IMG/VR virus record: IMGVR_UViG_3300042366_000722
Location: 1-35,972 of that record
Origin: a virus
Taxonomy: Duplodnaviria > Caudoviricetes
DNA: 35,972 nucleotides
Direction: 5' to 3' (one strand)
Shown: positions 5,882 to 30,166 of the stretch, piece after piece
Layout: every line of letters begins with the position of its first letter
Position numbering within the stretch: position 1 is the first letter of the stretch
Notes under the pieces: generated by a model
The model's input: the letters and a program-made list of their open reading frames with translations, nothing else
The model's database searches: none
Told to the model about the DNA's origin: nothing
Position numbers and translations under genes: made by a program

Positions 5882-6058
5882 TTACTCCTTGGTTTCAGCG
5901 CGCCACTCGGCGCACCAGTTGTCGGGCTTGCTTGCCGGGAATATGCCAACTACGCCGCTTTGCCCATTTGGGCCTTGCAACATCACCGGCTGCGGTGCGT
6001 GAGCGCGGCATTCCTTCGCTAGTGCCGAATACGCGGCGCAGGTTTCGCAGGTTTTCAT
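5882..6058 (-). CDS. Small Cys-rich (metal-binding) hypothetical protein
   Basis: Not in ORF track; ATG overlaps portal stop; MKTCETCAAY...ECRAHAP...FP....NWCAEW, 58 aa. Confidence 0.65.
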   Translation of the reverse strand: MKTCETCAAYSALAKECRAHAPQPVMLQGPNGQSGVVGIFPASKPDNWCAEWRAETKE

Positions 6059-7674
6059 GCTGGCTTCGCCAGCCCTGAAATGTTGCCCTTGGCGTCTCGG
6101 ACGACCGAGGCCATCATCTGCTGCTGCTGTTGCGCCTGCTGTTGCTGCGCGCGCTGGCCGCGGGCTTCTTCGACATCAGCTGCATCGACCATCAATTCAG
6201 CCGGCACGCCAAGCAACTCTGAACGCTTGCGCGTGGCCTTGTCCCATGCGTAGTTGTCGAGCAGTTCCATCTTTCCGGTGCCGGCTGCCTCTTGCACCAG
6301 CGCTGCCTCGAAGCGATCCATCGCGGCCACATCGACGGCCTTCTGGCTGCGCGCAATCGGGCTGCGGTACTGGACGCGGAAGGATTTCCCGGCCAAGTCC
6401 TGCGGCGGATTGCCGAAGGCACCATCGCGGAACATCAGGCCGAAGACCCGATCCACCATCGGCTGCATGTACTCCGACTGCATCCGGCCATACATCGGGC
6501 CAAGCTGCTGCCGGATCAGTTCCACGTTGATGGTGGCTTCCGTCGCGGTGATCGCCGGGCCATCCTTCGGCGTCAGTTGGTCAGCCATCAACACCTTGCG
6601 GATGGATCGTTGCAGGCGGTCGATCTCCAATACGGCAATGTCGAACTTGCTGGCCGGCTGGAGCGCCTTCATCGAATCGACCGAGTTCGCCACGATCACC
6701 TTGCGCGGGCCGATCCGGATGGTCTTGGGATTCAGCACCCCATCGTCCTCGGCGATCCACATGCCGGCGATGGCCATGTCCGCATTGGCGAGGACGTAGC
6801 GAACCACCTCGTTCAGCGTCTTGGCATCCGGCAGGGCATCGTGCATCGGGCCGAGGGCATAGACCGAATCAGGGAGAACGCCCCAGCGCGGAACGACAAC
6901 CGGCATTTCGTGGAAGCCCGACTCACGCAGGACGGTCTTGCTGTCCTTCTCGAAGTGGCAGGAGGCAATCGGCATGTTCTTCGCCTGGTTGCCCTTGCCA
7001 TCTTTGCGCGGATACACCGCCCACACCATCGAGATAGACTCGTCGGGCTTGCTCGTTGCCAGCTCGCGGGTCTTATCGCTGACCATGTTCGGGCCATACT
7101 CGGCGACGGCTTGTTCGGCAGACAGCACGAATTCACGGAACACCGTGTCAATCCCGCCGCCGCGCGTTGATGCGCCGAAGTAGCAGGACGCCAGCGGCCA
7201 TTGCTCGAACTGCAAGCCTTCCTCGTTCTCGGTGATGTAGAGCGCGAACATGCCGGCGATGCTCATGTCCAGGCAGCAATCGAAGCCCACAGCATCGAAG
7301 TTCGAGGCGTGGATGTTCTCCCACATCGACTCGGCTACCTCGTCAAGCCACTTGCGGCTGGCGTCCTCGTCATCCTCGCTGGTCGTGCCAGCATCCAGAC
7401 CGAACCAGCGGGAGTTCGCCGGGGTCAGGCCGGACATCAATGCAGATGCGTGGATGCGTATCCCATCCGTTGCGGTGCTGTCGAGTAGTTCGGCCTTCTT
7501 GCTCGCGCCTTCCGAAAGATTCCCGTCCGATCCTCCGGCGCCATTGGTCGCCAGCAGCGCCCCGCGCATCGGCATCGAGAAGTTGTAGCACTTCAGCCAC
7601 TCCTGCTCGACCACGGTACGCTTTGACTTCAGCGCCCCGAGGCGACGCAGCAGGGCGGGAACGTCAGCGGCCAC
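6055..7674 (-). CDS. Portal protein (head-tail connector, T7 gp8/Bbp21-like)
   Basis: 539 aa; LDSTA, SGLTPANSRWF, RESGFHEMP..VPRW....VY..GP, TATE motifs; Gln-rich tail. Confidence 0.92.
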   Translation of the reverse strand: MAADVPALLRRLGALKSKRTVVEQEWLKCYNFSMPMRGALLATNGAGGSDGNLSEGASKKAELLDSTATDGIRIHASALMSGLTPANSRWFGLDAGTTSEDDEDASRKWLDEVAESMWENIHASNFDAVGFDCCLDMSIAGMFALYITENEEGLQFEQWPLASCYFGASTRGGGIDTVFREFVLSAEQAVAEYGPNMVSDKTRELATSKPDESISMVWAVYPRKDGKGNQAKNMPIASCHFEKDSKTVLRESGFHEMPVVVPRWGVLPDSVYALGPMHDALPDAKTLNEVVRYVLANADMAIAGMWIAEDDGVLNPKTIRIGPRKVIVANSVDSMKALQPASKFDIAVLEIDRLQRSIRKVLMADQLTPKDGPAITATEATINVELIRQQLGPMYGRMQSEYMQPMVDRVFGLMFRDGAFGNPPQDLAGKSFRVQYRSPIARSQKAVDVAAMDRFEAALVQEAAGTGKMELLDNYAWDKATRKRSELLGVPAELMVDAADVEEARGQRAQQQQAQQQQQMMASVVRDAKGNISGLAKPA

Positions 7675-13682: not shown

Positions 13683-13710
13683 AAAGCCCGCTCGGTGCGG
13701 GCTTTTTTTT
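13683..13710 (+). terminator. Rho-independent terminator
   Basis: AAAGCCCGC-TCGGT-GCGGGCTTTTTTTT. Confidence 0.9.
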
Positions 13711-13738: not shown

Positions 13739-13767
13739 TTGACACGCTTTGTTTATTCCTCCATACT
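13739..13767 (+). promoter_or_regulatory. Sigma70 promoter of the early recombination/integron/int operon (PL-like)
   Basis: TTGACA-17 nt-CATACT; shares TTGACAC-n5-GTTTATTC with the cro promoter. Confidence 0.75.
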
Positions 13768-13906
13768 GCCATCAATCGCTGAACAACGCGACAGGCAAAA
13801 GCCCCGAGCGGGCCGAGTCAGCCAAGGAAAGAAAGCCCTCTGCCACCGGCAAGGCGTGATCCGACAGCGACACAGCCGACCAGTGCAACGAACATAGGGG
13901 ATTGTC

Positions 13907-14200
13907 ATGGGGTATTTTGAACTCGCCGTAAATCTCACCCGCGCCGAAGCCGCGCCCACGCTGGCGAAGGTTGCCAGCAAGGCTATCGCGCTCAAGACGA
14001 TCAAGAACCGGGCACAGGAAACGTGCTGCTGTTCCTCGTATTCCTTCCCACACCGCGCCGGCTCTGGCTGGTGCCCCGGCGTGAATCGCAACGACGAGCG
14101 CAGCGCAGAAGCCGAGCGCACACGCGAAGAAATCAACGCCGAAGAACTCGCCCTGTTTGATCGGGCCGAGGCTCGGGCTGTCAATTCAGGGGCGCGGTGA
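13907..14200 (+). CDS. Hypothetical protein (Cys/His motif)
   Basis: 97 aa with CCCSSYSFPHRAGSGWC motif; TGATG overlap with next gene. Confidence 0.6.
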   Translation: MGYFELAVNLTRAEAAPTLAKVASKAIALKTIKNRAQETCCCSSYSFPHRAGSGWCPGVNRNDERSAEAERTREEINAEELALFDRAEARAVNSGAR

Positions 14201-14373
14201 TGAACGCCCTGCGCTCCCTGTTCATTCAAATGTGTCTCTGGTGGATCGAGCGCGACATTCGATTCATTCAGCACCAGCGCGAAATGATGCTCGAACACCT
14301 GACCGAAGCGCGCAATCAGCGCATGGCATGGCTGGCCGAGTTGGATGATATTTCAATGGATCGGCCATGCTGA
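14200..14373 (+). CDS. Hypothetical protein
   Basis: Not in ORF track; MNALRSLFIQMCLWWIERD..., 57 aa, overlaps neighbours at both ends. Confidence 0.55.
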   Translation: MNALRSLFIQMCLWWIERDIRFIQHQREMMLEHLTEARNQRMAWLAELDDISMDRPC

Positions 14374-14573
14374 CCAAGGACGCCGCCGTATTCGCCGGGG
14401 TCTGCGTAATGGGCATCTTCGCGCTCGGCCTTGAGATCGGCAAGCAGCATCAGCCGATGCTCTGTCCGGTCGTTCCCGGTCAGCAGATCGTCAGCACCGT
14501 GGCGCCGGATGTTTGCGTCTATGCCAGCAGTTACGGCAGGGCGCTTCGCAAAGTGAAGGCGGTCAAATCATGA
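14367..14573 (+). CDS. Hypothetical membrane-anchored protein
   Basis: 68 aa with N-terminal hydrophobic helix. Confidence 0.55.
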   Translation: MLTKDAAVFAGVCVMGIFALGLEIGKQHQPMLCPVVPGQQIVSTVAPDVCVYASSYGRALRKVKAVKS

Positions 14574-14660
14574 GTGATGACGGCGGCCAATGGTGGCAAA
14601 CCGTAGGACAGCAGGAGCAGCAACGCGCAGACGCGCAATCAACCGGACAGGAGATTAATC

Positions 14661-15536
14661 ATGTTTCAGAAAGCAACCAAGAAGCAAGCCAAGCTGCGGC
14701 TGGCAATCAGCGGCCCGAGCGGATCGGGCAAGACGATGGGCGCGTTACAGGTCGCCTCGGGTCTTGGCGGTAAGCTCGCTCTGGTCGATACCGAACACGG
14801 CAGCGCCAGTCTGTATTCCGGGCGCTTCGCCTTCGACGTGCTGGAACTGGCCCCGCCATTCGCGCCTGAACGCTTCATTGAAGCCATCAACGGCGCTGCG
14901 GCAGCCGGCTACACCGCGCTGATCATCGACAGCGTAACGCACGAATGGGATGGATCGGGCGGCATCCTCGACATTCACGACAAGGTGACACGCGCCGCCA
15001 AGAGCGGCAACAGCTACACCGCCTGGGCGGAAGTCACCCCGCGCCACAATGCGCTGCTGAATGCCATCCTGCGCGCCCCGATCCACATCATTTGCACCCT
15101 GCGCAGCAAGACCGAATATGTCCTGCAAGACGTAGGCGGCAAGTCGGTTCCGCGCAAGCTCGGCATGGCCCCGATCCAGCGCGCCGGCTTCGAGTACGAG
15201 TTCACCACGGTGCTTGATCTGTCCCTCGACAATCACCTGGCCACCGCCACCAAGGACCGCACCAGTCTGTTCGATGGACAGACACCGGAGGCGCTGTCTG
15301 CAGCCACCGGCAAGAAGATGCTTGACTGGCTCAACGATGGCGAACAGCAAGCGCACTACGACGTCGACGCCGCGCTGGCCCGCATGGAGCGCGCCCACAG
15401 CCTGGATGAACTCGCCGCCACCTTCACCGAGCTTTGGCCTGCCGTGCCGCTGGAACACAAGCAGCGCATCGCCGCCGCAAAAGACCACTACAAATCCAAA
15501 TTCAATCCTAATCCCACACAAGGAGCCGCCGCATGA
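14661..15536 (+). CDS. Sak4-like (AAA_24) ssDNA annealing ATPase
   Basis: Walker A GPSGSGKT, LVDTEHGSA, IIDSVTHEW, FEYEF; AGGAG RBS. Confidence 0.85.
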   Translation: MFQKATKKQAKLRLAISGPSGSGKTMGALQVASGLGGKLALVDTEHGSASLYSGRFAFDVLELAPPFAPERFIEAINGAAAAGYTALIIDSVTHEWDGSGGILDIHDKVTRAAKSGNSYTAWAEVTPRHNALLNAILRAPIHIICTLRSKTEYVLQDVGGKSVPRKLGMAPIQRAGFEYEFTTVLDLSLDNHLATATKDRTSLFDGQTPEALSAATGKKMLDWLNDGEQQAHYDVDAALARMERAHSLDELAATFTELWPAVPLEHKQRIAAAKDHYKSKFNPNPTQGAAA

Positions 15537-16249
15537 ACGCACCCACCACCCCGAATCTGACCACCCCGCCGACCTACGGCTACGACACCACCCACGCCGC
15601 TGCTGCTGACACTGGCGGAATGGGCAAGTTCATTGACGAGTCCGGCGAGTACGTCGGCGCCATCACCTACGCTCGCGCCGTCCAATCCTCGAAGGGAGGA
15701 TGGGGCGTCGAGATCGCATTCCAGGCCGACGACGGCCGCAAGACGAAATACCCAATGACCCTCTGGACGCTCGCCGCCGATGGCGCCCGCCAGTTCGGGC
15801 ATGACATCCTCGACACCGTTTTGATCTGCGCCGGCATGAAACCCGCGATGGCCATGAAGCCCGGCAAGGTCACGTACACCGTCTATGACTTCGACCTGCG
15901 CGCCGATGTCGAAAAGGAAGGCGACGGCTATCCCGGCCTGACCGGCAAGCGCATCGGCCTGCTGATCCAGCGCGAGATGTACACCACCAAGGCCGGCAAG
16001 GATGCAGCGCGGCACTCGATCTATGGCGCCTTCGATGCCGAGACACGGCAGGCAGCGAGCGAGAAGCTGGAAAGCAAGCCCGCGGTAATCACCGAGAAGC
16101 GCCTGGCATCGCTCAAGGATCGCGACTCGCGCACCGCTGGCGCACCGGCTGGAAGCTACGACAACGGGTTCAGCGCACCAAGCGGCGCACCGAATCCCGC
16201 GCCGGCTGCCGGATCGTTTGATGACATGGCTGACGATATTCTGTTCTGA
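15533..16249 (+). CDS. Putative single-stranded DNA-binding protein
   Basis: Follows Sak4; FIDESGEYVG start and acidic-aromatic tail DDMADDILF. Confidence 0.7.
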   Translation: MNAPTTPNLTTPPTYGYDTTHAAAADTGGMGKFIDESGEYVGAITYARAVQSSKGGWGVEIAFQADDGRKTKYPMTLWTLAADGARQFGHDILDTVLICAGMKPAMAMKPGKVTYTVYDFDLRADVEKEGDGYPGLTGKRIGLLIQREMYTTKAGKDAARHSIYGAFDAETRQAASEKLESKPAVITEKRLASLKDRDSRTAGAPAGSYDNGFSAPSGAPNPAPAAGSFDDMADDILF

Positions 16250-16251
16250 TC

Positions 16252-16755
16252 ATGGGACTCCCCGCCCTCTACGAACTGGCGTCTGAGTACCGCGCCGCCG
16301 CCGCGCAGCTTGCCGACCTCGACCTTCCTCCGGAGGTTGTGGCCGACACGCTCGAAGGCTTGGCCGGCGATCTGGAAACCAAGTCGACCAACGTCGCCAT
16401 GTTCATCCGCTCGCTAGATGCTACCGCTGCGCAGATCAAGGACGCCGAAGCCGCAATGGCAGCCAGGCGCAAGGCCATCGAAGCCCGCGCTGATCATGTA
16501 CGCAAGTACCTGCTGGACAACATGCAGGCGTGTGGCATTACAAAGATCGAATCGCCCTGGTTCAAATTGTCTGTTCGCCAGAATCCGGCTGCCGTGGTAA
16601 TTGATAACGCTGGACTGATACCGGGGAATCTGTACGTCTACCCGTCAGCGCCGGAACCCTACCCCGATAAAAAAGCGATCAAGGCCGCCATCGAAGCCGG
16701 TATTGAATTTGAGGGCGCGCACCTTGAGCGCGGCGTAAGACTTGAAATCAAGTGA
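16252..16755 (+). CDS. Siphovirus Gp157 family protein
   Basis: LYELASEY...DTLEGL.GDLETK...RQNPAAV...PDKKAIKAAI. Confidence 0.85.
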   Translation: MGLPALYELASEYRAAAAQLADLDLPPEVVADTLEGLAGDLETKSTNVAMFIRSLDATAAQIKDAEAAMAARRKAIEARADHVRKYLLDNMQACGITKIESPWFKLSVRQNPAAVVIDNAGLIPGNLYVYPSAPEPYPDKKAIKAAIEAGIEFEGAHLERGVRLEIK

Positions 16756-16943
16756 ATGACAGACACCACCAAGGCACCGAAAGCCTCCTAGAACTCGCCG
16801 CCGAACTCGAAGAAGTCGCGCCGAATGTCGAGGAATTCTTCAGCCACAAGCGGGCGGCGGCTCTCATGCGGAAAACGGCGGGAGTGGTGCGGAGGCTTGC
16901 GCCACTTGAACCGGAAATTGATGTCGTGCTGGGGGAGCATTGA
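16752..16943 (+). CDS. Hypothetical protein
   Basis: 63 aa, GTGA overlap upstream, TGATG overlap downstream. Confidence 0.55.
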   Translation: MNDRHHQGTESLLELAAELEEVAPNVEEFFSHKRAAALMRKTAGVVRRLAPLEPEIDVVLGEH

Positions 16944-17026
16944 TGAGTCTCAACGCAAAAGCTGTGGGGCTGGACGCCGCAGGCGGACAGTCCCACACGA
17001 GCGACGGGTTGTGCCCCGGCGATTGA
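16943..17026 (+). CDS. 27-aa mini-ORF reading through the attC hairpin
   Basis: MSLNAKAVGLDAAGGQSHTSDGLCPGD*; GGGGAG SD and TGATG coupling; stop lies just before the RBS of the cassette gene. Confidence 0.5.
   Translation: MSLNAKAVGLDAAGGQSHTSDGLCPGD
16948..17014 (-). other. attC recombination site (67 bp)
   Basis: Minus strand: R'' GCACAAC-5 nt-L'' GCTCGTGT...L' CCACAGC-6 nt-R' GTTGAGA; imperfect hairpin with unpaired extra bases on the R''-L'' arm. Confidence 0.85.
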
Positions 17027-17370
17027 ACGGAGAACGAAATGCAGCAATGCGAGCGACTGCGAAAGCACAACCGCTGGAGGCGCGGCGACAAGCGCCTGAA
17101 GATGCCAGACCCGAAAGAACTCGGGGAACTGATCGACGGCGTGGCCGACCGGCTGGAAGTGCTGGAGCGCGAACACACGGAGTTTTTCGACCGCTGGCAC
17201 GATGAGCGGCGGAAGCGAGAGAAGCTGGCGTACGACGTTGAGCGGTGTTATCGGATGCTGCTATCGGAGCCAGACACGAAGGGCGCACTTTTCAAGGCCG
17301 AAAACATCCTGCGCGAGGCGCTGGGCGACCAGAAAGTCGGCGCTGGCGGGACGGCACCCGAGGGGCACAA
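16954..17370 (-). mobile_element. Integron gene cassette (417 bp) carrying an inverted ORF
   Basis: Bounded by AAC crossover triplets at 16952-54 and 17369-71; GTTGTGCCCC (17008-17017) is a perfect 10-bp complement of GGGGCACAAC (17362-17371), as expected for R''/R' of one circular cassette. Confidence 0.8.
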
Positions 17371-17401
17371 CTTAAATTCAACGACACCCGATGTCGCGTG
17401 A
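17039..17401 (+). CDS. Cassette-borne hypothetical protein; last 9 codons and stop supplied by attI
   Basis: 120 aa, GGAG RBS; LRKHNRWRRG...PKELGELID N-terminus, helical remainder. Confidence 0.7.
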   Translation: MQQCERLRKHNRWRRGDKRLKMPDPKELGELIDGVADRLEVLEREHTEFFDRWHDERRKREKLAYDVERCYRMLLSEPDTKGALFKAENILREALGDQKVGAGGTAPEGHNLNSTTPDVA

Positions 17402-17424
17402 ACACCGGAACCATGTCGCATAAC
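17362..17424 (-). other. attI-like site
   Basis: Minus strand CGTTGAA-TTTAA-GTTGTGC simple site plus two direct repeats GTTATGCGACAT / GTTCACGCGACAT, between the cassette and the intI start; no attC-type hairpin. Confidence 0.7.
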
Positions 17425-17452
17425 TCTGCACGCATCCACGGAGGCCTGCACC

Positions 17453-18496
17453 ATGACTGAAGTCATTGAACGAAACGCGACAACGCCCGCCGTCAAACGC
17501 GACATGCCGACCGCTTCACCGGCACAGCAAAAGCCGGTCAAGTTGCTCGACCAGGTGCGCGAGCGAATCTGCGTGCTGCATTACGCCCGCGCCACCGAGA
17601 AAACCTACCTCTACTGGATCAAGTTTTACATCCACTTTCACAGCCTGCGTCACCCCCGCGACATGGGCGCCGCCGAGGTCGAAGCCTTCCTCTCGCACCT
17701 AGCCACGGCGCGCGACGTCGCCGCCGGCACACAGAACCAAGCCATGCACGCCATCCTGTTCCTTTACAAGCAGGTGCTCGGCATCGATCTGCCTTGGCTC
17801 GACGGCATCACCCGCGCCAAGCCATCGAAGCGACTGCCCGTCGTACTCACCCAGGGCGAGGCGCAGCGCTTGCTCGCCGCCACACGCGGCACGCCGGGGC
17901 TGGTGGTGCGCCTGCTCTACGGCAGCGGCATGCGCCTCATGGAAGGCCTGCGGCTGCGCGTCAAGGACATCGACTTCGAGCGCAACCAGATCACCATCCG
18001 CGGCGGCAAAGGCGACAAGGACCGCGTCACCATGCTGCCGGCCAGCATCGTCCCTGCCCTGCAGGCCCACCTCGCCGAACGTCGCCGCTGGCATGACAAG
18101 GATTTGGCCACCGGCATGGCTGATGTTGAACTGCCGCATGCGCTAGAGCGCAAATACCCGAATGCCGGCAAAGAGTGGGGATGGCAATACGTTTTCGCCG
18201 CCGCCGACTACAGCACCGACCCGCGCACTGGCGTGATTCGCCGCCACCACATTCACGAAAAGACCATCCAGCGCCACGTCAAGGATGCCGCCCAGCGCGC
18301 CGGCATCAGCAAGCTGGCGCATCCGCACACGCTTAGGCACTCGTTTGCCACACACCTGCTGGAGGCCGGCTATGACATCCGCACCGTGCAGGAGCTGCTC
18401 GGCCACAGCGACGTGGCGACCACCATGATCTATACCCACGTCCTCAATAAAGGCGGTCGCGGCGTTGTCAGCCCGCTGGATCGCGTCACGACATGA
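17453..18496 (+). CDS. intI: Integron integrase (IntI family tyrosine recombinase)
   Basis: R-K-H-R-H-Y residues ([37 protein letters not shown]) plus the IntI-specific insertion [24 protein letters not shown]...[13 protein letters not shown] and the SPLD tail. Confidence 0.95.
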
Positions 18497-18648
18497 CCGA
18501 ACGCGCCCAGCACATCCACTGCGCCCGCGTATATCTGACCGAGGCCCGCCGTCGCCGGACTCAGACCTTCGGCTTCGTGTTGCTGGAATGGGCCGGGAAT
18601 GCGAGAAGGCGGGCGATGGCGGCTACCGGGCAGGGGGAGTTGTTCTGA
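18493..18648 (+). CDS. Hypothetical protein
   Basis: Not in ORF track; ATGA overlap with intI; [22 protein letters not shown]...QGELF, 51 aa. Confidence 0.6.
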
Positions 18649-18650
18649 TC

Positions 18651-18962
18651 GTGGCTCCCGATCTGCTCACCTACGAAGCAGCGGCAGCACTGCTCACTGT
18701 CAGCCCGGCCACCGTGCGCCGGCTGGTGCGTGCCGGGCATCTGCGCGGGCACGCTATTACCCGACGCTGCCATCGGGTTGACGCCGCCAGCGTGCGGGCG
18801 TACCTTCGCACGTCCGCCATCCCCGTCCTCGTCCTATGTCAGTCTGGAAAAACCGCGATACCTGGCGCTGGCGCGTCATGCGCGGCGGCCTTGTCGCTAC
18901 AGGAAGCGCACGAACGCGCGAAACGGCGCTTGCGGCAGAAGCGGGCGCCCGCCGCGAACTGA
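18651..18962 (+). CDS. xis: Excisionase-like HTH protein
   Basis: GTG after GGGGAG; LLTYEAAAALLTVSPATVRRLVRAGHL; overlaps the integrase start. Confidence 0.7.
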   Translation: MAPDLLTYEAAAALLTVSPATVRRLVRAGHLRGHAITRRCHRVDAASVRAYLRTSAIPVLVLCQSGKTAIPGAGASCAAALSLQEAHERAKRRLRQKRAPAAN

Positions 18963-19861
18963 TCGCCGGAATCACCGGCACCCAGCCAAAGCGCACACTT
19001 GACGAAGCTCTGGTGCGCTATCTCGACAGTCCGGAATTTCTCACCCTCAAAAGCGCCGCCAGTTTGGCCGACAAGCTCGCTACCTGGCACCCCTACATCA
19101 CCGCGCAACCGATCGAGCGCGCCGCCGATGTCGCTGATGTCGCCGTGCGCGACTGGCTCGCCAATGACCTGGCCATCGCCACCATCAATCGCCGGCTTTC
19201 CGGGCTGCGGCGCATCTTGGCGCTGGCGTATAAGCGTTGGCAGTGGATCGACCGCGATATTGCCGTGCGAATCCCGCTGCTACCGGGCGAGAACCAGCGG
19301 CAAGTATGGCTTACCCGCGCCGAGGCTGTGCGCTTGCGTCGCGCCTGCCCGCCCGGTCGCAGCCGGGCCGCTATTACCCTGCTGGTCACCACCGGCCTGC
19401 GCGTGGGCGAATTGCTCGCATTGCGCGCCGAGCAGGTCCGCGACGGCGCCATCCATCTTGACGCGCGTACCAAGACCGGCCGCCCCCGGGCGGTGCCGAT
19501 ACTTCCCCCGGGTAATCGCTACACCAGCCATGTGCCGCTGCGCATGAGTTATGACGGACTGCGCACCGCCTTTGATCGTGCAAAGCGTGCCGCCGGCTTG
19601 CCATCGATCCGCCTGCATGATCTGCGACATACCGTCGGCAGTCTGCTGGCCGAATCAGGCGCCAGCTTGCGTGATATTCAGGTCTGGCTCGGGCACACCA
19701 GCCCGGTGACCAGCACCCGCTACACCCACGTCGAGCTTGCCCGGTTGCGCAGCGTAGCAGACCAGGTGCATGCGCGCAATCTGCGCGCAAAGGACAGCGC
19801 AAACCGGGCGCAACTGGCGCGAGTGACGCCAGAGACACAACGGGAAACGCAGCCTAAGTGA
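18836..19861 (+). CDS. int: Phage integrase (tyrosine recombinase)
   Basis: TGLRVGELLAL, TKTG, HDLRHT, LGHTS..TSTRYTH; ends 11 bp before a tRNA-derived att core. Confidence 0.92.
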   Translation: MSVWKNRDTWRWRVMRGGLVATGSARTRETALAAEAGARRELIAGITGTQPKRTLDEALVRYLDSPEFLTLKSAASLADKLATWHPYITAQPIERAADVADVAVRDWLANDLAIATINRRLSGLRRILALAYKRWQWIDRDIAVRIPLLPGENQRQVWLTRAEAVRLRRACPPGRSRAAITLLVTTGLRVGELLALRAEQVRDGAIHLDARTKTGRPRAVPILPPGNRYTSHVPLRMSYDGLRTAFDRAKRAAGLPSIRLHDLRHTVGSLLAESGASLRDIQVWLGHTSPVTSTRYTHVELARLRSVADQVHARNLRAKDSANRAQLARVTPETQRETQPK

Positions 19862-19988
19862 TTGTTTTTACGTGGTGCCCGGAACCGGACTTGAACCGGT
19901 ATGGCTTGCGCCGAGGGATTTTAAGTCCCGCGAATGCGTATTTGTAATCATGTAGTTAGCTTGTTTGTGCGCGCAAAATACGCGCAAC
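19771..19988. repeat. Putative integrase arm-type sites flanking the attP core
   Basis: Tandem TGCGCGCAA-like pairs at ~19771-19790 and ~19968-19988, with AT-rich tracts next to the core. Confidence 0.5.
19873..19929 (-). other. attP core: 3' part of tRNA-Leu(UAA)
   Basis: Minus strand GGGACTTAAAATCCCTCGGCGCAAGCCATACCGGTTCAAGTCCGGTTCCGGGCACCA has anticodon arm (TAA), long variable arm, T arm and CCA; 5' half is absent. Confidence 0.9.
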
Positions 19989-20098
19989 AGGTCGCAGAGC
20001 GCGCATTCTATACCGCTGCCGCCGCGCGACCTCACTCGGGAATGGCGCGTTCGCCCGCAGCTTGAGTGTCGAAACGTAGCAGCGGAGGATGCCGGACC

Positions 20099-20533
20099 TC
20101 ATTTCATTTTGTCGAGGATGGTGTAGCAGGCTTCGAGTCCGGCGTCTCCTCGGGCAGCAAGGGCAGCGATCCGCGCAAGAAATCGGCTATGAGCGCCTGA
20201 TAGTTCAGCCCCGTTGGCACCCTCACAACCAGATCGGGGAGCTTCGGACACTCCGGCGGGGCGCTCGGGGCGGTCGCGCAGGCTGTCAAGAGCAGTATCG
20301 AGAGTGCGCTGCACGCCAGCCAGGCGCGCGGCTTGTTTTTTCGTGGCTGCATCGTAAGCCTCCTGTAGTTTTCTTTCAGTGTCGCGGGCAGCTTTGAAAG
20401 AATCGGCCCGTTCTTTTTCAATCTTCGCCGTCCAGCGCGTGTCGGCGGCATTGCTGCCGTGGGCATTCCAATAGAACCCGTTGGCGACAAAAGCCAGCAC
20501 CACGGCCAGCAGAAGCATCGGATTGGGGATCAT
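20099..20533 (-). CDS. i-spanin (Rz-like)
   Basis: ATG 20533 overlaps endolysin stop; N-terminal TM then coiled coil, C-terminal Cys. Confidence 0.75.
   Translation of the reverse strand: MIPNPMLLLAVVLAFVANGFYWNAHGSNAADTRWTAKIEKERADSFKAARDTERKLQEAYDAATKKQAARLAGVQRTLDTALDSLRDRPERPAGVSEAPRSGCEGANGAELSGAHSRFLARIAALAARGDAGLEACYTILDKMK
20104..20352 (-). CDS. o-spanin lipoprotein (Rz1-like), embedded in Rz
   Basis: Signal with lipobox LLLTA-C then Pro-rich APSAPPECPKLP, in another frame inside Rz. Confidence 0.75.
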   Translation of the reverse strand: MQPRKNKPRAWLACSALSILLLTACATAPSAPPECPKLPDLVVRVPTGLNYQALIADFLRGSLPLLPEETPDSKPATPSSTK

Positions 20534-20958
20534 GACTCGAACATCAGCCGTTCTGCCATCCGGCGCCGAGTCAGGCCGGCCAGCACCACGCCGCCGCCCT
20601 TGTTCCACCTGTCGAACTGCGGCCCGCAGTCCTTTGCGGATTGCCCATAGTTGATGAGCTTCAGCAGAGTCGATCCTTTGAAAGCTTCGCGCCCAATGTT
20701 GTAGATCAAGCTGCACAGGGCGTCGTATTGTCCCTGAGTCAGTTCCACGGCCACCAGATCATCAACGGCGTCAGCGGCTTCCTGTAGGTCTTGGCGAAGC
20801 AATTCGCAGGCTTCGGCTTCCGTTACCGTGTCGCCGGGTTGCACGTTTTCGGTTGTCCCATAGCCAATCGTCCAGACTTTGGCGGGGCACTGGTAGGCGT
20901 GTTCCTTGAATCCCTCGAATGACTTGACCAGATCAATGCAGGCGCTGGATGGCTTCAT
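20530..20958 (-). CDS. Endolysin, GH24 lysozyme
   Basis: FEG...AYQCPAKVWTIGYGTT, YNIG, GLTRRRMAE. Confidence 0.93.
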   Translation of the reverse strand: MKPSSACIDLVKSFEGFKEHAYQCPAKVWTIGYGTTENVQPGDTVTEAEACELLRQDLQEAADAVDDLVAVELTQGQYDALCSLIYNIGREAFKGSTLLKLINYGQSAKDCGPQFDRWNKGGGVVLAGLTRRRMAERLMFES

Positions 20959-23304: not shown

Positions 23305-23351
23305 CGTTTTACATTTCAAGCCTCGCCGGGTGATTCGCTATAGCGTATTTC
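23305..23351 (-). promoter_or_regulatory. Putative late promoter/activator site, copy 2
   Basis: Minus strand GAAATACGCTATAGCGAATCA-18 nt-GTAAAACG upstream of tail fibre; 20/21 and 8/8 match to copy 1. Confidence 0.6.
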
Positions 23352-24973
23352 TACGTTTCCAGCGCGACTTCATGCACCCCGCTGCTCGGGCGCCAGTCTG
23401 CCGGCCCCCGGCTCGGGTCGCCCTTCGGCGTGCCGCGGATGCGTTCCGGTGTGTCGGTCACGGCTGCCGCTGAAACGTCGATATAGTCGTCGCCCTGGTT
23501 CTTTGTCTCTGGGTTGAAGTCCTTCATCTGGTCCCAGAACGGGCCATCGAGAACGGACGTATGCGCCCACAGCATCCGCGCCGATATGACCGGCTCGAAG
23601 GCTTCGAGGATGCGCTTGTTCTTGTTGGCGATGGATGGTTCAGCTACCACCCCGCATTGCAGTTTCCGTTGCTTCAGGCAGGCTTTCAGCACCGCTGGCG
23701 CGAACTGCCCTATCCCGTTGGTTTCCACCACCAGCCGGGGAACGTGGAAGGATTCGATCAAGTCGCACAACTGCCACACCTGCCCCCCGGTGATGGTCTT
23801 GCCGTCCTCGGCAAACTCGGCAATCTCGCCGGTCAGGGCGATATTCCGGTGCAGGTAACGCCGTCCGTGTTCGTCTTGCAACAGAACAGCAGCAGCAGAC
23901 ACGTCGCTGTCGATCTTGCCGCTTGACGGGTCCCAGCGTGCCGACATTCCAGCGATGCGAACATGGCCGAGCCACATGGCCACCGTATCGTTGACGTGCC
24001 GTAGTTCAGGTTCCACGGCATAGGGCACGATCTTTGCCGGATCGAGCCGTGTTTCGCTGATCGGCTTGCTGTGCAGTTGGTACTGGCTGTCCCACTCGTT
24101 GATGGTCCGGCACTTCTTTCGGCGCTTGACGATCTCCTTGCGGTCGAAGCGTTCCGGCCAGGCGCAGCCCGCATACAGGTCGAGCGTCACACCGGGAGCA
24201 ACTGCGAACACCAGAACATTGCCTTCAATCTGGTAATCGACGCCAGTCTTCAGGACGGTCGTGAACTCCCCGATGCCAGCGAAAACGAAGTCCGGAATGA
24301 AATCACACTGAACTCGTTCCGTGGCATTCTCGACGCGGCGCTCCTGCGCGAATAACGGGATTCTCAGCACGTCAGCCCCCTTCCGGCCTTCCTCGTCATA
24401 GATTGAATCATGAGTATGTGGCGTGCCGACGTAGAGAATCCGGCCACCGGGAACCAAGATATGCGTTTGCTCCGACAGCCTGAACCGGAGTTTCTCGCGC
24501 GCCTCTGGCGTGGCGATATTTCTCGGGACTTCAACGTCATCGTTTTGCACCTCATCGGCCCGCGAACTGGTGATGTTCGACAGGATGCCGGCGGCCTGCA
24601 TGGATGGATTCCGCGCATCGTTCGCGCCGGAAACCCACCAGAAGGATATTTCGCCGACTGTTTCGCCCATGTCCCGCGTCAGGGGATGGCGCATCAGGAC
24701 GTTCTTGGTGTCTCGCGCGGTCTTGTAGGCGGTGCCGTCCTGGTCGCCCTGGTGCAGAATCCGGTACGTGGGGTCACGGTAGTAGCGCCATGCGTTGTAT
24801 ATGGCCAGATGCGTCGACTTCGCCGCCCCCCGGAACACTTGCAGGACGCCAATATCGCCCCGGTGTTCTAGCCAGTCCGCAATGCGGTAGTGAAACAGTG
24901 GAACTTCCCACCCTTGAGCCTCGGCCCAAATGTGGAAAAACTCCGCGTAGCTGGCCTTGTCCATGCCAGTCAC
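23351..24973 (-). CDS. terL: Terminase large subunit
   Basis: FRGAAKST Walker A variant, SRAD...DDVEVP Walker B, GTPH, WDPSSG nuclease motif, ETNG.G, DDYID. Confidence 0.9.
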   Translation of the reverse strand: MTGMDKASYAEFFHIWAEAQGWEVPLFHYRIADWLEHRGDIGVLQVFRGAAKSTHLAIYNAWRYYRDPTYRILHQGDQDGTAYKTARDTKNVLMRHPLTRDMGETVGEISFWWVSGANDARNPSMQAAGILSNITSSRADEVQNDDVEVPRNIATPEAREKLRFRLSEQTHILVPGGRILYVGTPHTHDSIYDEEGRKGADVLRIPLFAQERRVENATERVQCDFIPDFVFAGIGEFTTVLKTGVDYQIEGNVLVFAVAPGVTLDLYAGCAWPERFDRKEIVKRRKKCRTINEWDSQYQLHSKPISETRLDPAKIVPYAVEPELRHVNDTVAMWLGHVRIAGMSARWDPSSGKIDSDVSAAAVLLQDEHGRRYLHRNIALTGEIAEFAEDGKTITGGQVWQLCDLIESFHVPRLVVETNGIGQFAPAVLKACLKQRKLQCGVVAEPSIANKNKRILEAFEPVISARMLWAHTSVLDGPFWDQMKDFNPETKNQGDDYIDVSAAAVTDTPERIRGTPKGDPSRGPADWRPSSGVHEVALET

Positions 24974-28300: not shown

Positions 28301-28544
28301 TGCGCTGCTTGACCTTGGCGGCGTCGGCTTCCAGACCCTTGCTGGCGATCTCGGCGGCCATTTCCATCATGCTGCGCGGGGTCACGGCTTGGCCGGCCTT
28401 CTGCAATTCCACCCGAGCGGCAGGCATCGCCGACCGGACGCGATCCTCGATGTTCTTCAGTTCGTTGGCGTTCAGTGATCGGCCGATGGCCTGCGTCACG
28501 GCGTCTATGCACTCGGCTTTCACTATGCGGCCCTCAGAAAGCAA
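25311..28544 (-). CDS. Large internal virion (ejection) protein; likely start GTG 28523
   Basis: 1077 aa, helical; last of three internal-protein genes after tubular B; hydrophobic segments near C-terminus. Confidence 0.75.
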   Translation of the reverse strand: MLSEGRIVKAECIDAVTQAIGRSLNANELKNIEDRVRSAMPAARVELQKAGQAVTPRSMMEMAAEIASKGLEADAAKVKQRIANTIAAHDRVQNYLATAKARGIDSLTAIDQLVAFDAKATGRVMSIETQGKAIGDEAVGQLVNTFEATNPTWFGMVEDMAGVRLLVKEMMGENTGSPEAAAGAKAWKETTEALRLRFNQAGGDIGKLEDWGLPHHHSQSKVWKAGADAWVKDIMPMLNRDKYVRPDGTLMDDAELDGVLRKAWETISSNGMNKIEPGKVTGSAMRANWGSESRQIHFKDGDGWTAYQTKYGEQGFYDVMMGHVRGIAHQIALVETFGPNPNRSFELFRDQAILDGIAAKTDNPNAINEKAMKTTRLFNHVAGQVLPVANEGMARGFDSLRSWLVASRLGSAVITSITDEATMALMGHVNNLPEMQILRNELTALNPANKTDRRLLARMGLAGEVMASNLGRFGQEGLGASFASKMATATIRASGLSAMTAARKAAFGATMMDSIGQLVKTKGFDKLDPLDHRILLSKGVTETDWAVWRLANLETWRGNETMLTPEAVRAIPDAEIAKVMQPEIDKIKAAAKAQIDELNARNDQETGWVDKRIDRFKDAQAAAAKKIGKMAVDKDAKVQKLSEALQARIDLVQAEIERVKVRAEIEAAFQNEKNSDNVRGLLADVHRATNEANEYVPGANSELSRIFEGKADSLAARVASAGGSLGRQYGLREGALTRRIVEIEARIRNAERSSDAEVMRADKAETKRLDDIRDELAAFWFRSNERQQRRQFVMDRIARDVDPQIGQAIGRARSAATTRLLGAVLEEVDMAVITPGARTKVITQGSQSRGTLGGELWRSIWLFKSFPLAMIERHVSRGMNWGGESGGTAGGRAKYLMPLVLGTTLLGGLAVEISEILAGRDPKNANPWDDPKKAAKFWAQAFFKGGSLGLYGDFIYSEATQHGGGGLSAMLGPVAGLAEEMIGLTQGNLIQMAQGKDTRAGAELVKAAKGLTPGASLWYVKGAADHLFFQQLQNELSPGYLSSMASRARREFGQEYFWEPGHAAPSRAPDISRVAGG

Positions 28545-30166
28545 GCGACCGCAGCGCGCAAGCCTGTTTCCTGCTCGCGTGCGGCGGTCTCTAGGTCGGT
28601 GATGATGCCCTGCGCCTCGGCAACCGTTGCGGTGCCGCCGTCTTCGTCCATCGGGATTACGGCATCGGGGCGCACGGTGTCAGGGATGGTAATGCCGCCA
28701 GCCTGATCTGCTGCACCGGCAACAGGGGCGGCGGCGGGATCGGGGGCCGCCGTGGTGTCGGCGCCGACTTTTTGGGCTTGGAATGGAGCTTCTGATATTT
28801 GCCCAGAATCAAACACGACAACTTCGTCACCGCCGCGCCACACGATGCTATCGAACCCCTGCGCCTTCAGTTCTGCAATGCTCTCTTTTGTCATGTACGC
28901 AGGAGGCAAATCATCCTCCCACACCTTCGGATTCTTGATGTCGAGATACCTCTCCATCACGTTCTGCCCATATCCGGAAGCATCGTCACTTCTTGCGCTG
29001 AAATAAAAGCCCTGTCGATCAGGGAACCCTTTTGTCGACTTTGGCGCGGCAGGGTCAAATTCTGAAAAGACGCGATTTGTTCCGTGATAGAACGGTTGAT
29101 CCGGAGGAAACATCTGCGGGAGTTCGGGGGGCACCGGCTCCACCGCTGGCCGCAGCACTTCCGCGACATCCTCCTGCACCTTCGCCGCCGCAGGGTCGGG
29201 GATGAAGTCGCCGACCTCCTGCCGCATCGTCACGGGCCGGCCCTCGATCAGATCGTCAATCGCGCCGGTCATGTTGGCAACGTGCGAATCACGCGAGGCC
29301 AGATCAGCCGGCAGGCCGAAGCCGGGGCGCTCGATCTTTAGCTGCTCGGACTTCACCAGCGCCGCGTCGATGTCGGACGGCTTGAGCATGTCGGCGATCT
29401 TGGCGCGGTACTCGGCCATTGCATCGGCCTTGGCCTTCTCGCCGCGCAGTTGCAGCGCCCGACCGCCACCGGCAAACGCTGCGCCGAGGATGGCATCTAC
29501 CGCCATCGCTTCACCGTCCAGCGCCTTGAACTGCATCGCCAAATCAGCCCGCCCGGCCTTGGCGTAAATCTCCGAAGTCATGCCGCGCTGGAACACGCCT
29601 TGCGCGAGGTTGATGCCGGCGCCGTAGATCAGGTTCATGCCCAGCCCGGTGCTGCCGAGCGTCATCGGGGCGATTACGCCGGCTGTCATTGCTGCGCCCT
29701 GCACGCCGCCGACCTTGGCAGCCGTCTGAAGGTCGACGCCCTTGTCGAGCGCATCCAGCGTGCCGCCGACCGTTTCATTGACCAGCACGCCGCCCGGGCC
29801 GAAGGCTACCGCCTCGCCGCCGATCTTCACCAGCCCATGCAGGATTTGCCCCGCCATGCCGATTTCCTCGGCCTTCGGTGCCAGATGCCGGGAGAGCTTG
29901 TCAGCCGGCGTCACGATATGCTCGAACACCTTGTCCTGCGCCTTGATGGCGTCGCCGGTCAGCAGGTCGAAGCTGCCGGCCACTGCGCCCAGGGCGAGGC
30001 CGGTCGTGCGCTGCGTGTCGGCTGCCAGCCGGCCCAAGCCGGTGACCAAGCCCGTCCCCATGCCGGTGAAGAATCCAGCGGGTTGACTTAGATCAAGCGG
30101 ATTCGCCCGCGCCTGGTCGATCAGGCTGGCGCTGTCGTGATCCCCGGCAAGGTCGAAGGCGCTCAT
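28523..30166 (-). CDS. Internal virion (ejection) protein with an inserted ADP-ribosyltransferase-like domain
   Basis: Gly/Ala-rich membrane-like N-terminal half; YHGT..GFYFS..EVVVF domain at ~28795-29097. Confidence 0.7.
   Translation of the reverse strand: MSAFDLAGDHDSASLIDQARANPLDLSQPAGFFTGMGTGLVTGLGRLAADTQRTTGLALGAVAGSFDLLTGDAIKAQDKVFEHIVTPADKLSRHLAPKAEEIGMAGQILHGLVKIGGEAVAFGPGGVLVNETVGGTLDALDKGVDLQTAAKVGGVQGAAMTAGVIAPMTLGSTGLGMNLIYGAGINLAQGVFQRGMTSEIYAKAGRADLAMQFKALDGEAMAVDAILGAAFAGGGRALQLRGEKAKADAMAEYRAKIADMLKPSDIDAALVKSEQLKIERPGFGLPADLASRDSHVANMTGAIDDLIEGRPVTMRQEVGDFIPDPAAAKVQEDVAEVLRPAVEPVPPELPQMFPPDQPFYHGTNRVFSEFDPAAPKSTKGFPDRQGFYFSARSDDASGYGQNVMERYLDIKNPKVWEDDLPPAYMTKESIAELKAQGFDSIVWRGGDEVVVFDSGQISEAPFQAQKVGADTTAAPDPAAAPVAGAADQAGGITIPDTVRPDAVIPMDEDGGTATVAEAQGIITDLETAAREQETGLRAAVACFLRAA

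Follow-up and report, generated by a model that had tools for sequence, protein, structure and literature searches.

Integrons are gene-capture devices that are normally found in bacteria, and the recombination of a folded attC bottom strand with attI by the integrase IntI is established for the family. The early regions of phages abound in small genes that can be swapped and, to our knowledge, how such genes are exchanged with gene-sized precision is largely unexplained. Integrons in phage genomes were described by Qi et al. (2023, PMC9892861), whose main text reports complete integrons, In0 and CALINs, finds that phage attC sites recombine with attI1 and notes divergent attC directions in one Polaribacter phage. 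Folded bottom-strand recombination with attI is summarised there and in the accessible text of Cury et al. (2016, PMC4889954), according to which the usual direction of cassette genes is the most frequent one, but not obligatory. The account available of PMC13366799 reports that no integrons were found in its prophages.

The window, i.e. the whole stretch of 35,972 nucleotides that was analysed, is a whole contig with a 127-nt terminal repeat and for that reason is taken to be the complete circular genome of a 36-kb temperate podophage. Genes for head, tail, terminase, lysis, repressor, excisionase and integrase were recognised with PHROGs, as in temperate tailed phages, and the large virion protein is 45% like its counterparts in podophages of the phiV10/SPN1S type. 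The terminase large subunit gene (23351-24973, minus strand) lies between a tail-fibre gene and internal virion genes, far from the head-tail connector gene at 6055-7674, and a protein of the virion module (28523-30166, minus strand) has an ART-PolyVal ADP-ribosyltransferase domain (E 8e-16). The public runs that best hold the locus are lake and freshwater metagenomes and, among those searched, no RNA run held it; runs with shares below 0.2 (X14-X24) were left out of the run comparison. The host is likely a betaproteobacterium because of the placement of the integrase in the tree and the family of the attC. The features of the early region are as follows.

13739 to 13767, plus strand: sigma-70-like promoter at the start of the early operon, agreeing with the consensus at 10 of 12 positions
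16252 to 16755, plus strand: Gp157/Gam-like early gene (PF05565, E 3e-44; phrog_253), the upstream flank
16752 to 16943, plus strand: gene Z, a phage gene of 63 aa, the last fixed gene ahead of the array
16948 to 17014, minus strand: attC of cassette A, 67 bp, with the crossover between 16954 and 16955 and three extrahelical bases in the stem
16955 to 17371, minus strand: cassette A, 417 bp, its limits set by a perfect 10-bp complement (17008-17017 with 17362-17371)
17039 to 17401, plus strand: cassette gene A, 120 aa, antisense to attC and on the intI strand
17372 to 17424, minus strand: attI, with the crossover between 17371 and 17372, a degenerate L box and two direct repeats (17392-17403 and 17413-17424)
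17453 to 18496, plus strand: intI, the integron integrase gene, intact, 347 aa (TIGR02249, structure match and alignment)
18493 to 18648, plus strand: ORF of 51 aa without a family match, in ATGA overlap with the intI stop at 18493-18496
18651 to 18962, plus strand: excisionase-like HTH gene (PF12728, E 7e-9; phrog_66)
18836 to 19861, plus strand: the phage's own tyrosine integrase (phrog_1, E 3e-50), without the IntI insertion in the alignment
19873 to 19925, minus strand: stretch like the 3' half of a tRNA, read from the sequence behind int, a probable attP core, which we take to resemble tRNA-Leu

There is no whole tRNA gene in the window. A terminator-like hairpin (13683-13705) stands directly ahead of the promoter-like site; two such sites were found against 2.1 expected from shuffles, and it is by its position that the one at 13739-13767 commends itself. 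From 13767 to 18554 the plus-strand genes are closely packed, and no plus-strand terminator was detected. Gene Z has the same sequence in the sister phage L001, and in one contig of runs X2 and X3 a variant of Z precedes a different attC-like start, which fits a fixed flank. The idea that gene Z is itself an old cassette was rejected, since its homologue in L048 lies outside any cassette or array and no complement of the terminal core is found upstream.

A sequence-only reading of the window had proposed an intact tyrosine recombinase with the insertion peculiar to IntI, and this is borne out. The protein scores 482 bits against TIGR02249 (cut-off 265), with the XerC and XerD models far below their own cut-offs, and its best solved relative is VchIntIA (PDB 2a3v, E 1e-90). 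The insertion motifs occupy residues 227-266 and are absent from the phage's own integrase, a separate gene that starts 340 bp downstream of IntI. The catalytic residues R161, H292, R295, H318 and Y327 are invariant in the alignment and K186 is present. Purifying selection on intI was found in six of six comparisons (dN/dS 0.10-0.31). Among GenBank phages there is no close relative of the integrase, the best being 58% identical. The coupling of intI to the next gene by the ATGA overlap, also part of that reading, is indeed there, and a start/stop overlap behind intI occurs in 13 of 25 clade members. Its remark that transposon remnants are lacking agrees with the search for transposases, which gave no match among 52 ORFs of the window with PHROGs or 29 with Pfam.

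The proposed attC, with its spacing of 5 and 6 nt, is readable on the minus strand, where the R'', L'', L' and R' boxes, the spacers and the extrahelical bases are those of an attC. Integrons were called with TIGR02249 and a covariance model built here, and both this model and a stem scan give the site as the only attC of the window; as the site was among those used in training, its score is so by construction, and the model also detects attCs on chromosomes, as well as one in the class 1 locus L190. The folding of this single site is modest evidence (z -2.2 for the bottom strand of the attC alone, with 6 of 200 shuffles as good, and z -1.4 with flanks). The 10-bp complement had rightly been seen to bound a 417-bp cassette; by itself it too is modest evidence (5 of the 386 AAC-ending 10-mers in the window have one, that of cassette A included), and it is from comparison that the strong evidence comes. 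In a set of 41 phage attCs picked by our own scan, the three core pairs are constant and each of the 12 stem pairs has changed on both sides; 88% of cells are paired as against at most 49% for slid controls, a control that favours the structure, which was derived from the same alignment. The attI-like site that had been placed upstream of intI also stands. It adjoins the 5' end of intI, the sequence switches at its crossover when carriers of one integrase are compared, and the GTTs of its repeats are 32 and 53 nt before the crossover G, compared with 32 and 51 in attI1 (from the class 1 record L190). The window belongs to an attI subgroup with both direct repeats and ~80 nt to intI; another subgroup (L010-L012, L019, L022, L028, L029, L034-L036 and L039) has the first direct repeat only and ~60 nt to intI. 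With intI, attI and an attC cassette, the locus reads as a complete integron in the structural sense.

What the sequence-only reading had missed is the ORF of the cassette, which is encoded by the same strand as intI, antisense to its attC, and runs out of the cassette without a stop; its last nine residues and stop come from attI. Its frame is the only one that is stop-free in both alleles of cassette A, which differ in 20 synonymous and 9 non-synonymous codons; the dN/dS is 0.10 and there are 308 homologues. Searches of PHROGs, Pfam, NCBIfam and the ESM Atlas gave no match for it, and the cassette DNA has no close relative among GenBank phages. No promoter-like site was found in 17372-18496, and the typical expression from Pc, with genes read away from intI and towards their attC, is not the arrangement here. 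A 311-nt joint inside cassette A was not used, as it arises from the 10-bp complement in another sequence.

In the comparison of related phages that the sequence-only reading had suggested, cassette number and content differ in three near-identical pairs. The window and its sister L001 show 1 difference in 6,616 bases upstream of the array and none in 3,378 downstream (17372-20749), the first being at 20750. The window has one cassette and L001 has three, namely X (547 bp), A and B (339 bp), with A between X and B. Divergence from the window starts at the attC crossover, and both L001 junctions are exactly at the core triplet. Cassette X has a weak match to Ead/Ea22, below cut-off. The other pairs have flanks that are 99-100% identical, with 10 and 8 cassettes in L003 and L004, and at least 4 and 1 in L039 and L042; the cassettes shared by L003 and L004 keep their order, which indicates gain and loss and not reordering. 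From such comparison of genomes, cassettes appear to move whole, breaking at the core triplet.

Public runs contain both forms of the locus. In run X5 a single contig of 33.9 kb has the three-cassette form, both its flanks being free of differences, and in run X7 that form is present in pieces. The window form is on one 23.9-kb contig of run X1, identical from 15800 to 18405, and runs X2, X3 and X6 contain joints that skip 547 nt (cassette X) and 339 nt (cassette B); X6 also has cassettes A and B in a different genome, where the array is longer and their neighbours differ. X1 and X2 are possibly the window's own source and X5 that of L001, which makes X3, X6 and X7 the independent support. Assembly of a phage and a bacterial integron into a chimera has to be considered for any metagenome, the more so as attC repeats can mislead assemblers. 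Such an error is hardly conceivable here, given the X1 contig that spans the locus, the window's attI joint in X2, X3 and X6, an independent 33.9-kb contig with the same intI in the same phage, and the 127-nt terminal repeat. None of the four outcomes named as contrary by the sequence-only reading (an integrase grouping with XerC/D, failure of the attC, an invariant locus, a chimera) was what emerged. The empty-site and cassette-circle junctions that it had suggested looking for were not found in the contigs of seven runs, and contigs drop rare variants.

The allele of cassette A in L001 and X5, flanked there by two other cassettes, is 92% identical to that of the window. The alleles differ at 34 of 417 nt between clonal flanks, with both in one sample, and the window is therefore not simply L001 after two excisions; the difference would fit either separate insertions drawn from a common pool or homologous exchange, possibly of the whole array. 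Could turnover then be due mostly to a chromosomal IntI of the host acting in trans, together with phage annealing proteins that swap arrays at co-infection through the identical flanks, the phage intI being an optional helper? The 8% divergence of the two alleles would suit array swapping, as would the Sak4-like and SSB genes found upstream with PHROGs. Action in trans is conceivable because host-type chromosomal integrons in Betaproteobacteria have attCs of the same family (scores of up to 72 bits from the model built on phage sites, in a scan of 67 sources including 64 of 80 genome loci) and because several contigs have attI and an array without an intact intI. This explanation is nevertheless unlikely. 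Throughout the clade intI is intact, evolves under purifying selection and is accompanied by an attI of its own. New cassettes are found at attI, and the switch from one neighbour to another falls at the core triplet, a pattern that exchange driven by homology cannot produce by itself.

The distal attC of L001 (L001:6607-6632) has collapsed, with its core boxes 6 nt apart and the stem gone, and this should lock cassette X in place or make it hard to excise. The start of cassette X with a full attC is found in L008 and in an X7 contig. The idea that distal cassettes are generally locked by collapse of their attC was rejected, such a collapse being present in 1 of 14 arrays checked. Cassette X (L001:6617-7163) also has ends of ~35 nt and 54 nt in common with methyltransferase cassettes (L008:5393-6166 and L029:26-743), the genes being unrelated. 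Reuse of one cassette shell by unrelated genes was likewise discarded as a general rule, with five weak cases in 4,261 pairs (93 cassettes); the one clear case is that of X against L008 and L029.

A search for IntI relatives, seeded by window-specific words, gave 59 viral loci that encode one. The attI core motif is present in 35 of 54 sequences checked, the window included, and the arrays in 27 sequences that were walked have 0-10 cassettes, L035 being an empty platform. A quick maximum-likelihood tree was built from 119 rows kept from 139 loci and the window, after removal of partial or stop-containing integrases and duplicates. A phage clade, which the sequence-only reading had proposed to look for, is present as one branch of 30 viral rows (SH-aLRT 90) with no genome row inside, nested among betaproteobacterial integrases; L037 lies outside it as a separate capture and 12 more distant viral rows are scattered. 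Of 20 loci examined, 16 have a second phage integrase gene behind intI, encoded by the same strand, and 10 have genes for virion or lysis proteins in the flank; in L011 the integron is instead between terminase and portal.

The nesting of the clade, together with the separate capture in L037 and an AT-rich cassette without a long gene in L042, raises the question of whether the locus is a recent passenger, a piece of a host chromosomal integron as in the prophages of Vibrio and Shewanella; complete phage integrons of this kind are in the main text of PMC9892861. This is very improbable. None of the 30 clade rows is a genome row, in a tree whose genome loci come from 4 of 64 parts of the collection, and the pattern across the clade contradicts it. 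The best genome integrase, among 80 loci from 4 of 64 parts of the collection, is 66% identical to that of the window, well short of a near-identical host copy, compared with 79-100% for the closest viral ones, and the start/stop overlap of intI with the phage gene behind it, seen in 13 of 25 members, also speaks against it, as does the cargo, which is reversed, phage-type and higher in GC.

A pattern search for attI gave further viral contigs with an array and intI cut short or missing. In L048, L055, L140, L142, L147, L158, L168, L170, L172, L173, L179, L180 and L189 attI, mostly with an array, lies beside an intI that is truncated, internally deleted or absent, and such contigs are a likely route to reversed arrays that have no integrase. 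Two attI and two tandem arrays, one of them behind a truncated or missing intI, were seen in L015 (9607-11042), L143/L144 and L162/L163.

The reversed orientation of gene A is widespread among phage cassettes. With a ribosome-site filter, 58 of 80 phage cassettes had genes in the reversed direction only, 1 in the canonical direction only, 3 in both and 18 were uncalled, whereas of 57 chromosomal cassettes 3 were reversed only, 18 canonical only, none both and 36 uncalled. Without the filter 25 phage cassettes were reversed and 4 canonical, with 42 open on both strands, against 1 and 45 of the chromosomal ones. Because the cassettes share ancestry, Fisher values overstate the independence of these counts. 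The phage set is 80 of 95 cassettes, duplicates and bodies outside 150-1300 nt having been dropped; the chromosomal control at first had 16 cassettes and was enlarged to 57 with the covariance model. An orientation test by longest ORF (24 plus, 12 minus and 47 ambiguous of 83) is uninformative because the DNA is GC-rich, and it was replaced by start-site criteria. Two genome loci, L121 (Thiobacillus) and L132 (Halothiobacillus), have one and two cassettes called reversed, respectively, and the L121 integrase is near the phage clade.

Cargo was compared with PHROGs for 87 of 114 candidate ORFs, the frames scanned being the reversed ones. Matches were obtained for 30, which supports the reversed call, and 57, that of the window included, were without a family. 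Sixteen of the 87 are DNA methyltransferases (11), Mom-like (2), PAPS-reductase (2) or Lar-like (1), families with a role in escaping restriction. For methyltransferases this role is also given in the main text of PMC9892861. Phage cargo has a GC of 0.58 compared with 0.50 for chromosomal cassettes. L002:5521-6273 and L006:5680-6710 each have two overlapping plus-strand frames that match different methyltransferase families. The only cassette of L042 (7541-7913) has a long near-perfect inverted repeat and lacks a long gene on either strand; it may be host-type or non-coding.

The missing stop of gene A is also not peculiar to the window, as 38 of 61 reversed ORFs stop beyond the crossover. The tail of gene A is nine residues from attI in the window and one residue from the next attC in L001, and among 120 listed homologues of cassette A, 51 reach the boundary motif and have 46 different tails. 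A motif of ~25 nt adjoins the core GTT in 10 of 94 phage cassettes (window 17333-17360, L001:7650-7665, L029:1200-1225, L003:6905-6925 and L008:6115-6130 among them), in some at the gene-stop end on one strand and in others at the gene-start end on the other strand. This is the pattern that a conjectured flipping of the cassette body between two cores would leave.

The anatomy of the locus, the viral clade, the reversed orientation and the turnover of cassettes are matters of observation, and very probably the integron is resident in the phage early operon, with its own IntI likely inserting and excising cassettes, the sister phages differing at the exact crossover. The sequence-only reading had seen a phage gene-capture platform. 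The platform holds, with a viral clade, an attI of its own, purifying selection, the second phage integrase downstream in most loci examined and three variable pairs in its favour; the word capture needs correction, the cargo being phage-type and antisense. The comparisons accordingly support a platform that is phage-resident rather than fresh host DNA, and what looks like a phage cassette pool rather than the capture of ordinary host cassettes.

For the resident integron the following course can be proposed. A single transcript from the early promoter would run through gene Z and the cassette genes and on through intI, xis and int, and therefore no Pc would be needed. IntI would be produced on induction or infection, at a time when replication offers single-stranded DNA. 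By analogy with bacterial integrons we infer that it recombines the folded attC bottom strand with attI. An incoming cassette would land beside intI, at the promoter-distal end of the array, and with entry farthest from the promoter the first-position advantage of bacterial arrays would therefore be inverted. A reversed gene without a stop of its own would take its tail from whichever site follows. The pool of the clade may serve in part as a swappable kit of DNA-modification and anti-restriction genes, a counter-defence role that is read from family labels. A wider proposal is tentative and on balance doubtful, namely that temperate phages of freshwater Betaproteobacteria have an integron lineage and pool of their own, with genes reversed possibly by a body flip, shuffled at induction and serving as a counter-defence kit, a mirror image of the defence cassettes in bacterial integrons, the integrase-less reversed arrays being decayed copies.

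A site-specific machine in the early operon, with cassette differences that are exact to the base, makes the question of how phages swap genes testable by standard integron assays, and it reverses the usual picture of integrons as bacterial tools. It also suggests a phage-side answer to the defence genes that integrons carry. Read-through into attC gives one protein many tails and could explain variable C-termini of phage hypothetical proteins. If there is indeed a phage lineage and pool, they would make the formation of gene cassettes, an open question, accessible to study.

Comparison with described systems places the locus as follows. The phages of Qi et al. (PMC9892861) are like the window in having intI, attI and attC in temperate phages and methyltransferases among their cassettes. 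The three complete integrons of their main text, unlike that of the window, are Vibrio or Shewanella chromosomal pieces or class 1, and the integrases of their phages are 45-58% identical to that of the window; a phage-specific IntI clade, systematic antisense cassettes and turnover between sister phages are not described in that main text. No phage-specific clade with reversed cassettes was found in the literature searched, where subscription journals are thinly covered. Class 1 integrons have an attI core with two direct repeats at nearly equal distances and attC opposite to intI, as here. The window stands outside the class, with 57% identity to IntI1 and a different attI sequence; no transposon gene, of the Tn402 type or any other, no resistance cargo and no promoter like Pc was found, and genes are on the intI strand. 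The chromosomal integrons of freshwater Betaproteobacteria (Thiobacillus, Nitrosomonas, Gallionella) share the attC family and have the nearest integrases outside viruses (60-66%), but their genes are mostly canonical (45 of 57 without the ribosome-site filter), their GC is lower and they lie outside phage early operons.

The inverted-integrase integrons in the accessible text of Cury et al. (PMC4889954) also have intI and the cassette genes on one strand. In those it is intI that is turned relative to attC, with canonical genes, whereas in the window attC is on the minus strand and intI on the plus strand and the genes are turned within the cassette. The virus Rctr41k (KX853513.1, 4680-9434) has an IntI-like gene (48%) annotated as xerD, with four attC-like sites downstream on the gene strand, and looks like the inverted-integrase type; it is not among the phages named in the main text of PMC9892861. 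Phage-defence cassettes in mobile integrons, as presented in the available text of a preprint (bioRxiv 10.1101/2024.07.02.601719), are likewise a swappable kit in the conflict of phage and host. The genes there are bacterial defence genes, whereas here the kit would be on the side of the phage, with its role taken from family labels. Integrons in phages had thus been published, in the main text of PMC9892861, as captured bacterial pieces; what the window and its relatives add is a phage IntI clade, reversed cassettes and turnover between sister phages, in a locus that by its sequence departs from the typical integron in gene orientation, promoter and cargo.
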